A stretch of 64,000 nt of DNA, taken from the IMG/VR virus record IMGVR_UViG_3300028920_000023. One strand, given 5' to 3'. The notes beneath the pieces are model-generated. The model did no database searches, was not told the DNA's origin, and saw only the letters and a program-made list of their open reading frames with translations. Position 1 is the stretch's first letter, and each line of letters opens with the position of its first letter. Of the stretch, positions 29,634 through 59,244 are shown piece by piece. The DNA is from a virus (Duplodnaviria; Caudoviricetes). Position numbers and translations under genes: made by a program.

Positions 29634-29687
29634 CCCAACTGAAGAGGCCAGGCGGTCCCTGGCCGAAACACCCTCGGGTGTCTTGGG
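29634..29687 (+). ncRNA. Canonical type I hammerhead ribozyme, copy 1
   Basis: Stem I CCCAA/UUGGG; CUGAAGA; stem II GGCCAGG-CGGUC-CCUGGCC; GAAA; stem III CACC-CUCG-GGUG; GUC cleavage site after 29682. Confidence 0.92.
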
Positions 29688-29737
29688 AAACCACAGTCTT
29701 TCCAGCGAGGACAACCACAGAACACAAGGAGACCATC

Positions 29738-29929
29738 GTGGAATTCGTCTTCAGAGCCAGAGAACTTATGCATCTTCAATCTTTCGCCTTGCTTGTCACC
29801 AAGCTTAAGCGCTTGCACATCGAGTTCCACCTTAAGTGGACTGACGATGCTATGCAAGTGTCTTTGATTACAAACACAAAGATCGACCTTTGTATAGTCT
29901 CTAGACCATATCTGCGTGAACCCAACTGA
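29738..29929 (+). CDS. 63-aa ORF between two identical hammerheads
   Basis: AAGGAG RBS, GTG start; stop TGA is the hammerhead core UGA. Confidence 0.55.
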   Translation: MEFVFRARELMHLQSFALLVTKLKRLHIEFHLKWTDDAMQVSLITNTKIDLCIVSRPYLREPN

Positions 29930-29974
29930 AGAGGCCAGGCGGTCCCTGGCCGAAACACCCTCGGGTGTCTTGGG
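29921..29974 (+). ncRNA. Canonical type I hammerhead ribozyme, copy 2 (identical 54 nt)
   Basis: Same sequence as 29634-29687; cleavage after 29969. Confidence 0.92.
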
Positions 29975-29998
29975 AAACCACATTGAAAGGAGGCAGAA

Positions 29999-30328
29999 AT
30001 GCCAAACCAGATCCCAAGCAACCTCCCCGGACACGTGCAGCGGAGGCTGCTTTCCCAGGTGGAAAGGCCCGCAAGGGCTTTCTTGCTTGCGACGGAACTC
30101 GCGAAATCCTGGAAGACCTCTTCATTCCTTGAGGAAGACAACATTGAGCAAAAATTCCTCACGGCCTATGGGGCCTGCGAGCCCAACCTCCAGAAGCGCC
30201 TCTCACAGGCTCTCAAGAGATATCGAAGAGCCTGCAGGCAAGCCAACATTTCGCCGGATGACCGCTTCAGCGTCCTCCGATACACCCACCTCAAGCCGAA
30301 GAAAATCCCAGTGAACAGCTTGGCCTGA
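29999..30328 (+). CDS. Hypothetical protein
   Basis: AAAGGAGG RBS. Confidence 0.8.
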   Translation: MPNQIPSNLPGHVQRRLLSQVERPARAFLLATELAKSWKTSSFLEEDNIEQKFLTAYGACEPNLQKRLSQALKRYRRACRQANISPDDRFSVLRYTHLKPKKIPVNSLA

Positions 30329-30388
30329 ACCAAGCGAAGCCCTTTCCTCTCTGGAAAGGGCAGGGACACAGAAGGAGAAAGGAGAAGG

Positions 30389-30589
30389 ATGACAAACGCA
30401 GAACTCATCGAGCTGCTCCAGAAGCAGCCGCCCGAGCAGGAAGCCCTGCTCACGATAGTGGACGAAGACACAATGACAACCTCGGTGGAGGCCCTCCACC
30501 GGGTTGACAAAGAAGAACTCATCCAGGATGGGTTCGACCTCGAAGACGCTAAAGATGCCGAGCCTATCGGTATCTTCATCAAGCGATAA
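30389..30589 (+). CDS. Small acidic protein
   Basis: AAGGAG RBS; MTNAELIELLQKQPPE pattern. Confidence 0.8.
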   Translation: MTNAELIELLQKQPPEQEALLTIVDEDTMTTSVEALHRVDKEELIQDGFDLEDAKDAEPIGIFIKR

Positions 30590-30767
30590 ATCTGTGCTCG
30601 AAAAACCCGCATGGAGCGCCTGCCAAGGCCCCATGAGATGGGGGACTCACATCGGCACCGACCGGAAACCGGTACGGGGTTTCCCCGAGCACTTGAAAAG
30701 AACGAAGCCCTTTCCTCACTGGAAAGGGCCGGGGCAACAGAAAGGAGAAAACATGCAAGTCGTTAGT

Positions 30768-30811
30768 TCCTGATGAGTTTTCGAAACCCTCTCCCACCGG
30801 AGAGGGTAGGG
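30768..30811 (+). ncRNA. Minimal hammerhead-like motif (family A), canonical core, GUA site
   Basis: CUGAUGA-G(UUUU)C-GAA-ACCCUCUCC/GGAGAGGGU-A-GGG. Confidence 0.7.
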
Positions 30812-30829
30812 ACACAGAAAGGAGAAAAC

Positions 30830-31217
30830 ATGAACGAAGAACAATTCATCACGAACCTGCTTACGGAGATCGTTAAACCCGAGTACGACATCCAGCAGGG
30901 GGAAGCAGTCGCAGTCAAATACGTCCCTGGGGACGTCCCAGCTTACGATTTGATCGTAAACGTCAAAGAGAAGAACTATGGACAAATGAAACTATCAGTC
31001 CTTGGGTTCTTCATCCAGAAAGGAGAACGAGAGAGCTTTCATGCTGATATCGAGCGGGATCACCTCGACGCCAAAGGAACCTTCACCTACTGGAGAAGCC
31101 TACTTCGATGAACTGGAAGAAAATCTGGAGCAAGTCCCAGACAAGAAAGCCGTCATCCAATACTTCTCCGAGACATTCGACGTATACACTACAACCGCTC
31201 TTGAAATGAACACCTGA
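30830..31217 (+). pseudogene. Hypothetical gene apparently split by a +1 frameshift near 31085
   Basis: ORF 30830-31111; protein-like text EAYFDELEENLEQ.. continues in the +1 frame to 31217. Confidence 0.5.
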
Positions 31218-31245
31218 AACACCTTATCAATCCTTGCTATATGCA

Positions 31246-57080: not shown

Positions 57081-57131
57081 CCTCGACGGAGGCAGTCACA
57101 ATAGCGGAAGAAACCGCAGAAGGAGGGAAAT

Positions 57132-57317
57132 ATGTCCGAGGTGATAAAGGATGCAAGCGGAAGACCAATTGGCAAAATCGTTACCGAGGTGGACGGAACA
57201 ATAAAGGTTTACGACGATTTGGGCTTGCCAAAAGGCAAAGTCACCGAAGATGGGACTTTCGATGATCTTGGCATCAAGATTAGCTCAGCTCAGGTTCCCG
57301 GTTTGCTTCTAGACTGA
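57132..57317 (+). CDS. Small beta-hairpin repeat protein
   Basis: IKDASGRPIG..YDDLGLPKG..FDDLGIKI. Confidence 0.75.
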   Translation: MSEVIKDASGRPIGKIVTEVDGTIKVYDDLGLPKGKVTEDGTFDDLGIKISSAQVPGLLLD

Positions 57318-57355
57318 TGAGCACGAAGCAGAAGGCTTCGTGCTTTCTGCCTCAG
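57312..57355 (+). ncRNA. Hammerhead-like motif (family A, G15.1-C16.1)
   Basis: CUGAUGA-G(CA)C-GAA-GCAGAAGGC/GCUUUCUGC-C-UCAG. Confidence 0.5.
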
Positions 57356-57368
57356 AAAGGAGATCAAC

Positions 57369-57557
57369 ATGACAACAGAAGAAATCCTGGATGTCCTGGC
57401 CCAAGAACTGGGCGAATTGGAGGAATCCGAGCTGGAGAAAAGAGAAATGCTAGATCTGATGATTCACGACAGGCACAAGATTTCGGATCTAGACGAGACG
57501 CATATTAGTCAGATGCGCTTAGAGGACGAGTTCATTTTTGGAGGAGATTGTTCATGA
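57369..57557 (+). CDS. Hypothetical protein
   Basis: AAAGGAG RBS. Confidence 0.75.
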   Translation: MTTEEILDVLAQELGELEESELEKREMLDLMIHDRHKISDLDETHISQMRLEDEFIFGGDCS

Positions 57558-57796
57558 AGTACGTGATCACGCAGACGCAGGGAATCAAGCATGTTCTCCT
57601 CTGTTCCGATATCGTTTCTCATGCCGACCTTGCGAAGGGCCACGGAGAGGTTGTTTCTGCGGGAATGGTGGACGTCTATGCTACGGATGGCGAGATTCTG
57701 GTTTCGGTTTACGGAAAGTCCGTAACTCTAAAGACTGAGCCACGTTGGGGCGATGACGAGTTAATCAAAAAGCATCTTACTCCAGAAGTCTATTGA
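57554..57796 (+). CDS. Hypothetical protein (MKYVI..F...SHA..SAG type)
   Basis: GGAGGAG RBS. Confidence 0.75.
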   Translation: MKYVITQTQGIKHVLLCSDIVSHADLAKGHGEVVSAGMVDVYATDGEILVSVYGKSVTLKTEPRWGDDELIKKHLTPEVY

Positions 57797-57836
57797 TGTA
57801 GTGGGGTTTTGTGCGGGAACCAAGGGGAGCAACAAA

Positions 57837-58007
57837 ATGCTAAATGGAACAAGACTACAGGAAGATTATGTCTTGGCGATGAGGACCTTTCATGAGCGCC
57901 ACCGATCCAAGAAGTTCCGGATCAGAGCGAGACAATGCCTGAAAATCGCTAGACATTTGAAGAAGAAATATGCGGCTAATCCAATGAGCAGGGAGATCAA
58001 AGCATGA
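57837..58007 (+). CDS. Small basic protein
   Basis: AAGGGGAG RBS. Confidence 0.6.
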   Translation: MLNGTRLQEDYVLAMRTFHERHRSKKFRIRARQCLKIARHLKKKYAANPMSREIKA

Positions 58008-58237
58008 TCATAGAATGCGTCTATGATGACCACACCAGTTACTTCGAGCTGGATGACAGCCACGCCAAACAGCTCCTGGGTGTGTCAGACGCCAACACAG
58101 CAAACGACATAATCACAACCAACGGCAATTCTACAGGCATCTCCTCGGATCTGGATGTAGATGTCGTGCTGGTTTGTGGCTTTGGGTTCGATAAAGCTGA
58201 ATTCCACGAATCAATACGGGAAGCTATGGATCAGTAG
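58004..58237 (+). CDS. Hypothetical protein
   Basis: GGAG RBS, ATGA overlap. Confidence 0.7.
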   Translation: MIIECVYDDHTSYFELDDSHAKQLLGVSDANTANDIITTNGNSTGISSDLDVDVVLVCGFGFDKAEFHESIREAMDQ

Positions 58238-58292
58238 AGTTCGTCTCTGAACGAACCTGACAAGACCTATCTCGCCTAAGGAAGGAGGGAAA

Positions 58293-59117
58293 ATGAACCA
58301 AGAAGAATTAGCCAAGAGAATCAAGAGAACAACGAAAACTGCTCTCAAGCAGCACATAATGGACCTCGGAGAAAAATTAGCCTACCTAGAACGTAAAGTC
58401 GCACATGGCTGTGCCGACGCCCCCTGTGATCTCTGCGAAGAAGCACATAGGAAAGATTGGCCTTGTTGTCGTGTAATCTACTGTCCACAAGAACCAAACG
58501 CAAAGACAGCTATAATCAGATTATCCTTCAAGAAGATCAAATTCAATGGAAGAACGGGTTCCGAGCACTACTGCACCGACCTAGACGAGATAATCGATTA
58601 TCTCCACTCCAAAGACATCTTGCCTCCCGAGGATTTGCCCCCACCAAATGCTCAAAAGTTACTGGAGCTGATACAGGCTGGTTATCTGAGGCACCACACT
58701 CCAAGTAGTTGGAAAAAAGCAATATTCAGCGATCCAAGATTAGCATATAATTACGTCTGTGAGGTCATTGAGGGGCGCTGGCCAGAAGCAGAAAAAACAA
58801 TAAGCAAAGACCCAGAATACGCATATTTATACGCCAGCGAGATTATTAGAGGACGCTGGCCAGAAGCAGAAAAAACAATAGCCCAAGACCCAGAACACGC
58901 GTACCATTACGCCCGTGATATTATCGAAGGACGCTGGCCAGAAGCAGAAAAAACAATAAGCAAAGACCCAGAATACGCGTATTTATACGCATGTGAGGTT
59001 ATTAAAGGACGCTGGCCAGAAGCAGAGAAAACAATAAGGCGCGTATTCTGGGTCTTTGCTTTATATGATGAGCATGTCATCAAGGGACGCAAACATGAAT
59101 CCATCTTTGGCAGCTGA
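58293..59117 (+). CDS. Protein with C-terminal 22-aa repeats (AY.YA..II.GRWPEAEKTI..DPE)
   Basis: Four to five visible repeats; AAGGAGG RBS. Confidence 0.82.
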   Translation: MNQEELAKRIKRTTKTALKQHIMDLGEKLAYLERKVAHGCADAPCDLCEEAHRKDWPCCRVIYCPQEPNAKTAIIRLSFKKIKFNGRTGSEHYCTDLDEIIDYLHSKDILPPEDLPPPNAQKLLELIQAGYLRHHTPSSWKKAIFSDPRLAYNYVCEVIEGRWPEAEKTISKDPEYAYLYASEIIRGRWPEAEKTIAQDPEHAYHYARDIIEGRWPEAEKTISKDPEYAYLYACEVIKGRWPEAEKTIRRVFWVFALYDEHVIKGRKHESIFGS

Positions 59118-59202
59118 CACAACCCGCGCAGCACAAGGTCGCGAGAATAACGTGTGCAGCATGCGACAAGCTCCTGTCTCCCTTGGGCGCATGCCGGCTT
59201 TG

Positions 59203-59244
59203 CCCTGACGAGGTAGCGAATAACTGGCTCTCGCCAGTTAAGGG
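59203..59244 (+). ncRNA. Hammerhead-like motif (family A, unrelated stem III sequence)
   Basis: CUGACGA-G(GUAG)C-GAA-UAACUGGC/GCCAGUUA-AGGG. Confidence 0.55.

Follow-up and report, generated by a model that had tools for sequence, protein, structure and literature searches.

What are the repeated RNA elements that punctuate a block of small genes in a giant phage genome, and what could they do there? The window analysed here, a stretch of 64,000 nucleotides, is part of a phage contig of ~355 kb, in which ~30 small genes form a one-strand block with RNA elements at the gene junctions. The genes of this array are without known relatives, and no Pfam family was found for any of them. A first-pass annotation had described these elements as about 33 hammerhead ribozymes, roughly one per gene boundary, and had suggested that they cut a polycistronic transcript into single-gene mRNAs or define mobile gene cassettes. 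Little is still known of the role of bacterial and phage hammerheads, according to PMC6765202. Clustered type I hammerheads, in groups of three, were published from prophages and phages in 2011, when the cutting of a transcript into single-gene mRNAs was proposed for clustered prophage hammerheads, three of which, in tandem, cleave (Perreault et al., PMC3088659); the transcript-cutting idea is therefore not new.

A one-stranded array at gene junctions

Approximately 31 elements lie at 29.6-43.9 kb, all on the + strand, and 2 further ones at 57.3 and 59.2 kb; in the 14-kb block the core is near-intact in 24 elements, and the other 7 are remnants. They comprise 2 identical complete type I hammerheads, 17 family A copies plus 4 decayed ones, and 7 family B copies plus 3 decayed ones. 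The window contains 69 copies of the motif CTGANGA, compared with 33.3 ± 5.8 in shuffled sequences, and at 29.6-44 kb it was counted 35 times on the + strand and 4 times on the - strand. A descriptor scan that required CUGANGA, a closing pair, GAA and a hairpin with 5 bp or more likewise matched 21 sites on the + strand and 1 on the - strand, in agreement with the strand restriction that had been annotated.

The elements sit 3' of a stop codon and 5' of the next ribosome-binding site and start codon, and in about one third of the copies the UGA inside CUGA is itself the stop codon of the upstream gene. From H17 to a plausible start codon the distance is mostly 17-55 nt, by a heuristic whose first start is spurious for some copies. 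According to the recorded gene calls of an identical contig, 20 of the 30 junctions at 29.6-43.9 kb carry at least one element and 18 carry one with an intact core, so that one motif per boundary holds as an average, not as an even spacing. The array recurs, with 0 substitutions and three indels, in independent assemblies of other samples, and is thus not an assembly artefact.

Two complete type I hammerheads

At the start of the array stand two complete ribozymes:

29634..29687, + strand: complete type I hammerhead; C3 at 29639; stem I CCCAA/UUGGG, 7-bp stem II, stem III, GUC
29921..29974, + strand: complete type I hammerhead, identical second copy; C3 at 29926; upstream stop codon is the UGA in CUGA

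The duplication is exact over the 57 nt of the complete hammerhead, with 287 nt from one copy to the next. Both copies carry all the core letters, A15.1-U16.1 and a stem II of 7 bp, and a stem I of 5 bp is exclusive to them. Against R2, a covariance model trained on 24 hammerheads, all from other phage contigs, both give full-length matches of 55.9 bits (E 9e-14). The 24 training hammerheads display both-sided pair changes in all three stems, which are confirmatory only, since the set was chosen with a descriptor that demanded pairing. The predicted cut sites lie after C29682 and after C29969, and we expect both copies to self-cut there. No copy, these two included, reached an Rfam gathering score; Rfam also overlooks clear hammerheads in other phage contigs.

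Family A and family B

In family A the core is combined with a stem II reduced to a single G-C pair, a linker of 2-4 nt and a stem III of 8-9 bp:

30770..30808, + strand: family A; A15.1-U16.1, linker GUUUUC, weak 3-bp stem I
31356..31394, + strand: family A; A15.1-U16.1; A at 11.1
31849..31887, + strand: family A; U15.1-A16.1
32104..32139, + strand: family A-like; unrelated stem III, stem II pair absent, 3-bp stem I CCC/GGG
32877..32915, + strand: family A; U15.1-A16.1
33346..33385, + strand: family A; U15.1-A16.1; single bulged C in stem III
33671..33709, + strand: family A
34164..34203, + strand: family A
34889..34927, + strand: family A
35681..35718, + strand: family A
35888..35926, + strand: family A
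39602..39640, + strand: family A
40296..40334, + strand: family A
40692..40730, + strand: family A
41033..41070, + strand: family A
57314..57351, + strand: family A-like; unrelated stem III, G15.1-C16.1
59205..59241, + strand: family A-like; unrelated stem III
30323..30365, + strand: decayed family A; hairpin and tail remain, core box gone
30691..30733, + strand: decayed family A; a mini-ORF of 6 codons comes next
34951..34987, + strand: decayed family A
37258..37299, + strand: decayed family A

The core letters C3 U4 G5 A6 N7 G8 A9 and G12 A13 A14 are intact in 15 family A copies, where the hammerhead core is invariant and free variation is seen at N7, in the stem II linker and in the loop of stem III. 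In 15 copies stem III is paired at 133 of 133 positions, with up to 5 pair types per position; the pair 15.1-16.1 is U-A in 11 of the 15 tabulated copies, A-U in 3 and G-C in 1. Stem III pairs in every copy, and H17 is never G. Three family A-like copies, at 32104, 57314 and 59205, keep the same core with stem III sequences that, though unrelated to the rest, form paired stems, as had been noticed from the first.

Family B is built of the core, a 3-bp stem II, a 9-bp stem III and GUU, with A15.1-U16.1 and, again, without stem I:

35262..35304, + strand: family B; intact core
36743..36785, + strand: family B
37467..37509, + strand: family B
38156..38198, + strand: family B
38766..38808, + strand: family B
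42785..42825, + strand: family B; A6 changed to G (CUGGUGA)
43858..43900, + strand: diverged family B; core intact, stem III with one mismatch
34085..34125, + strand: decayed family B; C3 changed to A
38907..38949, + strand: decayed family B; C3 and G5 mutated
39180..39224, + strand: decayed family B; C3 and A6 mutated

The core letters are intact in 6 family B copies; the core box is mutated in 4 of 10, and mutations there are no rarer than in the rest of the element. Every C3 coordinate of the first-pass annotation carries the motif, with the qualifications that the copy at 42785 reads CUGGUGA, that 31356 has A at 11.1 and that 32104, like 31356, is devoid of the G10.1-C11.1 closing pair; the seven copies described there as decayed are genuine remnants with broken cores. 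Overall, mutations expected to inactivate the core occur in at least 9 copies, and the core is broken in the 42785 copy and in the 7 remnants. Since the copies of a single genome share a common ancestry, their conservation constitutes weak evidence of selection.

Absence of stem I in the reduced copies

Beyond the 1.1-2.1 pair, comparison of each copy's own flanks with mismatched flanks revealed no stem I in either reduced family. The reduced copies have 0-4 contiguous stem I pairs, mostly 0-1; across families A and B the mean number of contiguous flank pairs is 1.6 with own flanks against 1.0 with mismatched ones, the flank duplex energy is -2.7 against -3.0 kcal/mol, and pairing of 30-nt flanks gives a mean z of +0.2. 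The copy at 59205 is the sole reduced one that pairs its own flanks clearly better than mismatched flanks (z -2.8). Furthermore, the 150 nt upstream of families A and B contain nothing complementary to their 3' tails. R2 scores are 10-17 bits in family B and do not exceed 11 bits in family A. The elements are hammerhead-related, as first described, and homologous to complete hammerheads; calling all of them hammerheads does not hold, as all but two are without stem I, most of family A carries U15.1-A16.1, at least 9 copies bear the core mutations mentioned above and the Rfam scores all stay below gathering.

Relatives and known systems

A relative of 320 kb (G001), with ~40% protein identity, carries six hammerheads (5 complete, 1 partial) on one strand within 15 kb, in which stem I covaries with that of the window (CCCAU/AUGGG and CCCGU/ACGGG against CCCAA/UUGGG). 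An unrelated public phage contig, that behind L179, has 7 complete hammerheads within 5 kb. In both genomes the layout is that of the window: CUGA contains the stop codon, and the cut site is followed by a ribosome-binding site. Families A and B were not found in any diverged relative searched.

The two complete copies of the window, as well as the hammerheads of G001 and of the L179 contig, are of the clustered type I kind described by Perreault et al. (PMC3088659), and those published hammerheads share with the window's the restriction to one strand and the flanking of single genes or short gene blocks. However, the published clusters are groups of three, whereas the window has 24 near-intact elements and 7 remnants, mostly without stem I. 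Clustering itself is a known phage habit, of which this case is unusually large and reduced. The earlier impression that no case of this density had been described consequently fails for density, given the L179 contig, and stands for the total number and the reduced architecture.

Reduced forms have precedents. Activity is on record for a natural hammerhead whose stem II has 1 bp, and weak cleavage for a U15.1-A16.1 variant (PMC3088659). Engineered miniribozymes, in which helix II is cut down to one G10.1-C11.1 pair and a linker of 4 nt, display high in vitro activity (PMC544870); this stem II design is common to family A, and copy 30770 shares even the linker GUUUUC. Miniribozymes, however, bind their substrate through long helices I and III, whereas family A has a long stem III and one stem I pair.

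The nearest Rfam model is the RAGATH-1 hammerhead RF03152, whose weak scores are 19.8 bits at 29616-29687 and, for a local match that leaves out stem I, 18.4 bits at 30769-30809. Its consensus resembles family A in a stem II of 1 bp and a stem III of 9 bp, but includes a 5-bp stem I and an upstream hairpin, both of which family A lacks. Membership in RAGATH-1 was rejected on these two structural grounds and on scores below the gathering score of 56.3 bits.

The PeSL motifs of T4-type phages, each an early promoter plus a terminator stem-loop, are thought to promote the shuffling of gene modules (PMC2839356, PMC4122927) and, like the elements of the window, recur in a variable part of the phage genome, beside small genes whose function is unknown. 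The modules described here differ in being ribozyme-like, in being followed by a ribosome-binding site and in their weak promoter-like signal. Sigma-70 promoter-like sites number 18 against 10.7 ± 3.4 in shuffled sequences and are not located at the elements, and terminator-like tails are restricted to a GT-rich segment; a PeSL-type promoter-terminator cassette was accordingly rejected.

Discussion

We moderately favour the interpretation that the elements are ribozyme-derived intergenic modules which process or stabilise a long transcript. The modules would descend from type I hammerheads that this phage lineage puts between genes, each module starting at or just past the upstream stop codon and ending at H17. 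Cutting of the complete copies would leave an upstream RNA that ends in a hairpin with a 2',3'-cyclic phosphate, and a downstream RNA that begins with a 5'-OH leader. Families A and B may do the same job weakly or conditionally, or may retain only the role of the hairpin in RNA stability. Repeated sequence of this kind could also permit the duplication, decay and deletion of gene cassettes. Anatomy, strand bias, position, homology to complete hammerheads and the absence of stem I are observed; cleavage, the long multi-gene transcript and the effect on mRNA are predicted.

The strongest alternative, which we judge rather unlikely, is that families A and B are dead hammerhead relics, whose hairpin, tail and ribosome-binding site are kept as a 3'-end protector, weak terminator or insulator, the CUGAUGA box persisting through its one or two in-frame UGA stops and through the youth of the copies. 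The absence of stem I and the prevalence of U15.1-A16.1 in family A agree with such decay, as do the upstream stop codons provided by about a third of the elements and the identity of several copies over 43 nt, which points to recent origin. Moreover, 4 of 10 family B copies and 4 family A remnants have a broken core box but retain hairpin, GAAA and tail, and the hairpins of the GT-rich segment are terminator-like (51 sites against 17 in shuffled sequences). However, the copies of a CA-rich segment have no U-rich tail, and termination is therefore not the common function. Furthermore, GAA, G8, A9 and G10.1 are useless to a stop codon, yet they are invariant in intact copies, and the copies at 57314 and 59205, with their unrelated stem III, keep CUGAYGAG, a short linker and CGAA, a combination that a stop codon plus hairpin does not need.

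Somewhat less probable still, in our view, is that families A and B are natural minimal hammerheads, made of stem III, a vestigial stem II and one stem I pair, which cut at ~20 junctions. Help from a protein, the ribosome or ionic conditions might then compensate, and a 14-kb transcript would be converted into single-gene mRNAs by RNA catalysis.

It is improbable that the conserved unpaired letters and the hairpin form a site bound or cut by a protein, for instance an RNA-binding protein or endoribonuclease of phage or host, with a hammerhead likeness that is inherited and functionally irrelevant. Conserved unpaired sequence beside a variable hairpin is the usual look of such sites, for which stem I would be dispensable; nevertheless, the conserved letters are those of the hammerhead core, the free positions (N7, loops) are those left free in hammerheads, and no candidate protein was found, with no Pfam family among the array genes.

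Very improbable is that the repeats are DNA-level recombination sites that move gene cassettes, like T4-type PeSLs or integron attC: the exact duplication of the complete hammerhead, the paralogous genes at 29230-29589 and 32515-32874, the remnant elements and mini-ORFs, and the small genes without known relatives fit the mobile-cassette reading offered at first, but the elements are strictly one-stranded, their G-U pairs work in the + strand transcript only, sigma-70-like sites are but weakly enriched, and no difference among the available strains is bounded by elements; recombination between repeats is likely a side effect and not the reason for the core letters.

In one genome, complete, half-reduced and fully reduced forms thus occupy the same intergenic position, a natural series for asking how much hammerhead a cell needs and how cutting affects mRNA stability and translation. 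Should the reduced forms prove to cut, they would rank as the smallest hammerheads in nature and could serve as parts in engineered multi-gene constructs; otherwise the block would show the decay of ribozymes into plain intergenic hairpins.

One of the two outlying copies, that at 57314, has a possible bulged stem I, paired by hand and not computed. It lies directly downstream of a DUF2201 gene, and a complete hammerhead is likewise placed in the relative.

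Hammerhead-derived elements in the gene array

The block of about 30 small plus-strand genes at 29.6-43.9 kb is punctuated at its gene junctions by a system of hammerhead-derived elements, of which as many as 24 with a near-intact core fall within 14 kb, a notable scale. Judged by their sequence and pairing, two members are full ribozymes, and the others, grouped into families A and B, form a reduction series that may have kept catalytic activity. The classes are listed below; single positions given for elements are those of C3.

29634-29687 and 29921-29974, plus strand: two identical complete type I hammerheads, with 5-bp stem I, 7-bp stem II, A15.1-U16.1 and GUC
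Seven copies and three remnants, plus strand: family B, with perfect core, 3-bp stem II, 9-bp stem III and GUU
Seventeen copies and four remnants, plus strand: family A, with core, G, a linker of 2-4 nt, C, GAA and a stem III of 8-9 bp

The first-pass annotation described these motifs as intergenic, restricted to the plus strand and present at roughly one per gene boundary. The motif was recovered at every C3 position assigned, three with qualifications (CUGGUGA at 42785, A at 11.1 in 31356, and the lack of a stem II pair at 32104). Strand confinement was borne out by a structural descriptor scan, with 21 sites on the plus strand and 1 on the minus strand, and by CTGANGA, which occurs 69 times in the window vs 33 in shuffles (2x) and lies nearly always on the plus strand at 29.6-44 kb. 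The elements are indeed placed between genes, after the upstream stop codon and before a ribosome-binding site and start codon; in about one third of them the stop is the UGA of CUGA itself, otherwise it lies up to ~75 nt upstream, and the start codon with its ribosome-binding site usually follows 17-55 nt after H17. The proposed regularity was only partly upheld: with junctions taken from the recorded gene calls of the identical contig, an element is present in 20 of 30 and the remaining 10 are without one.

A covariance model built from 11 family A copies (R1) retrieved from the window 14 family A copies at 36-68 bits plus weaker remnants, all on the plus strand. Among 15 copies, all 133 of 133 stem III positions were paired, with at most five pair types per position, and pair 15.1-16.1 was U-A in 11, A-U in three and G-C in one; H17 of this family is A, U or C.

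Covariance-model searches

At gathering score, Rfam returned for the whole window one tRNA alone and no hammerhead, and at the E-value threshold only weak matches, namely Hammerhead_3 (21 bits) and RAGATH-1 (18-20 bits). Plainly canonical hammerheads of other phage contigs were also missed by Rfam, and thus its silence on the window says little; for this reason, a second model (R2) was built from 24 type I hammerheads with short stem I found in other IMG/VR contigs. The training set displays many two-sided pair changes in all three stems, which are confirmatory only, since its members were picked with a pairing descriptor. R2 recognized the two complete copies over the full model length (55.9 bits, E 9e-14), while scores were low for family B (10-17 bits, local matches without stem I) and family A (no more than 11 bits).

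Stem I

Stem I, a feature absent from the first-pass checks, comprises 5 bp in the two complete copies; in the remaining ones, contiguous pairs counted from the junction are mostly 0-1 bp, and 2-4 bp in seven. For the reduced copies, own flanks had no advantage over mismatched flanks (1.6 vs 1.0 pairs; -2.7 vs -3.0 kcal/mol), and duplexes of 30-nt flanks compared with mismatched ones gave a mean z of +0.2, indicating no general stem I, with 59205 as the only clear exception among these copies (30-nt flanks, z -2.8). The conserved 3' tails had no complement within 150 nt upstream, and a general hidden stem I was not found by adjacent pairing, 12-nt or 30-nt flank duplexes, or MFE folds. Three helix I pairs can suffice in vitro, as Tabler and colleagues reportedly found in 1994, and hence, of the reduced copies, 30770 and 32104 with three pairs each would be the most promising candidates.

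A 15-bp GC-rich hairpin (29593-29628) separates the stop codon at 29589 from the first complete hammerhead; in a weak full-length match to RF03152, its 3' half was aligned to the upstream hairpin of the model.

Hammerhead arrays in other phages

The nearest relative found, at ~40% protein identity, was the IMG/VR genome G001 (320 kb; complete, with terminal repeats). It carries six hammerheads (five complete, one partial) on one strand within 15 kb, and its stem I covaries with that of the window. Clusters were also observed elsewhere, with seven hammerheads in 5 kb on the unrelated phage contig behind locus L179, and three in 1.8 kb on another contig. Both G001 and L179 share the window layout, with the stop codon in or just before CUGA and the ribosome-binding site past the cut, which argues that dense one-hammerhead-per-gene arrays are a wider phage habit. 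Hammerhead clusters of three, shown to cleave, were published in 2011 with the proposal that they cut long transcripts (PMC3088659), and their role was still called elusive in a further report (PMC6765202). Therefore, the initial view that no case of such density had been described has to be narrowed: dense phage arrays exist, but the scale of this one and its stripped-down architecture are notable. Searches of viral contigs for families A and B with exact and degenerate patterns gave single chance matches or none, and R1 found no family A in 90 loci and G001. Matches from a scan of the genome collection were nearly all tRNA T-arms of Solirubrobacterales, a false lead.

Nature of families A and B

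We consider it slightly more likely than not that the elements of the block are processing or stability modules between genes. Several features of families A and B favour a hammerhead origin and perhaps a hammerhead function. They occupy the same slot as the complete hammerheads; their invariant letters are those of the hammerhead core, the free positions being N7, linker and loop; and the core is retained in three copies whose stem III sequences are unrelated. Furthermore, natural and engineered hammerheads tolerate a 1-bp stem II (PMC3088659, PMC544870), which is found in the RF03152 consensus as in family A. Conversely, the lack of stem I argues against activity, U15.1-A16.1 is reported to cleave weakly (PMC3088659), and the CUGAUGA box of family B is mutated in 4 of 10 copies, a rate like that of the rest of the element, with GAAA and the stems persisting. 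In the GT-rich segment, G-U pairs are no proof of selection, since any Watson-Crick pair becomes a wobble pair through C-to-U or A-to-G change. That both families are relic hairpins is a possible but less likely explanation. A role as protein sites or at the DNA level is improbable, being left with what these two readings do not take up.

Other identities were rejected. An integron attC site was ruled out by the absence of an inverse core and the presence of elements on one strand only, a tRNA-like T-arm by the absence of a T stem, and intrinsic terminators by CA-rich copies without a U tail. Pistol, hatchet and twister ribozymes and the kink-turn were also among the candidates set aside. Non-circular hammerhead permutations (PMC10085705) were inapplicable, as the block order C-G-S is plain type I.

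Phage setting and surroundings of the array

The array was independently assembled from other samples and is thus not an assembly artefact: L261 matches it at 99.9%, and the lower BLAST figures of L262 and L263 are caused solely by downstream repeat genes. In a 16.5-kb alignment of the strains, three indels were seen but not a single substitution; being identical otherwise, the strains provide no covariation or comparative signal.

Gene content indicates a very large phage, including a helicase, a NucS-like nuclease, a subtilase, DUF4116 repeat proteins, an AAA ATPase followed by a DUF2201/VWA protein, and genes for nucleotide and DNA modification. One array protein falls in a cluster that is represented on a 354,787-bp JGI contig. 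The helicase as query found no relatives among viral contigs, two array proteins had no homologues beyond their own cluster, and metagenome relatives reached via the DUF2201 protein had no hammerheads nearby.

The modification set (14411-15637, plus; 18024-18674, 11499-12260, 12776-14296 and 4615-6600, minus) consists of a PurZ-like adenylosuccinate synthetase (phrog_1211), a dCTP-deaminase-like protein, a dNMP kinase, a LAGLIDADG-Mom-like fusion and a glycosyltransferase; the set hints that the genome is modified, perhaps by 2-aminoadenine. A tRNA-Leu (anticodon UAA) with a long variable arm lies at 12594-12682 (minus). The AAA ATPase and DUF2201 metallopeptidase-like/VWA genes (54138-56886) are both conserved in G001, with a complete hammerhead after each gene there. 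DUF4116 repeat proteins, with several copies in G001, are encoded at 43975-46456 and 62359-63621, the latter varying in repeat number between strains (453 vs 363 residues).

Just upstream of the gene block, two tandem repeat arrays (28495-29172), one with five units (62-84 nt) and one with four (66-77 nt), could represent iterons or regulatory sequence. The strains differ in how many copies they have of the 77-nt unit at 29030-29106. An adjacent 162-residue ORF (27988-28476), composed nearly entirely of T, Q, N, P and K and located in a stretch whose plus strand is almost devoid of G and T, may not be a real gene. Within the array, paralogous 119-residue genes (29230-29589 and 32515-32874; ~82% DNA identity) have weak zinc-binding-domain-like matches, and mini-ORFs of 2-6 codons, each after a ribosome-binding site and between neighbouring elements (30752-30772, 38860-38877, 32163-32171), look like cassettes after gene loss. 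A TTTTTC-like repeat run at 36265-36310 shows a 12-nt length difference between strains.

Strand asymmetry is strong: the plus strand is C-/A-rich at 3-33 kb irrespective of gene orientation and G-/T-rich at 33.4-43 kb, where genes are still on the plus strand; these switches near 33400 and 43500, with a cumulative GC skew minimum near 33 kb, may mark an origin of replication or a segment that has been rearranged. Positions 1-2000 have a GC content of 63% vs ~40% over the following 25 kb, with opposite skews.
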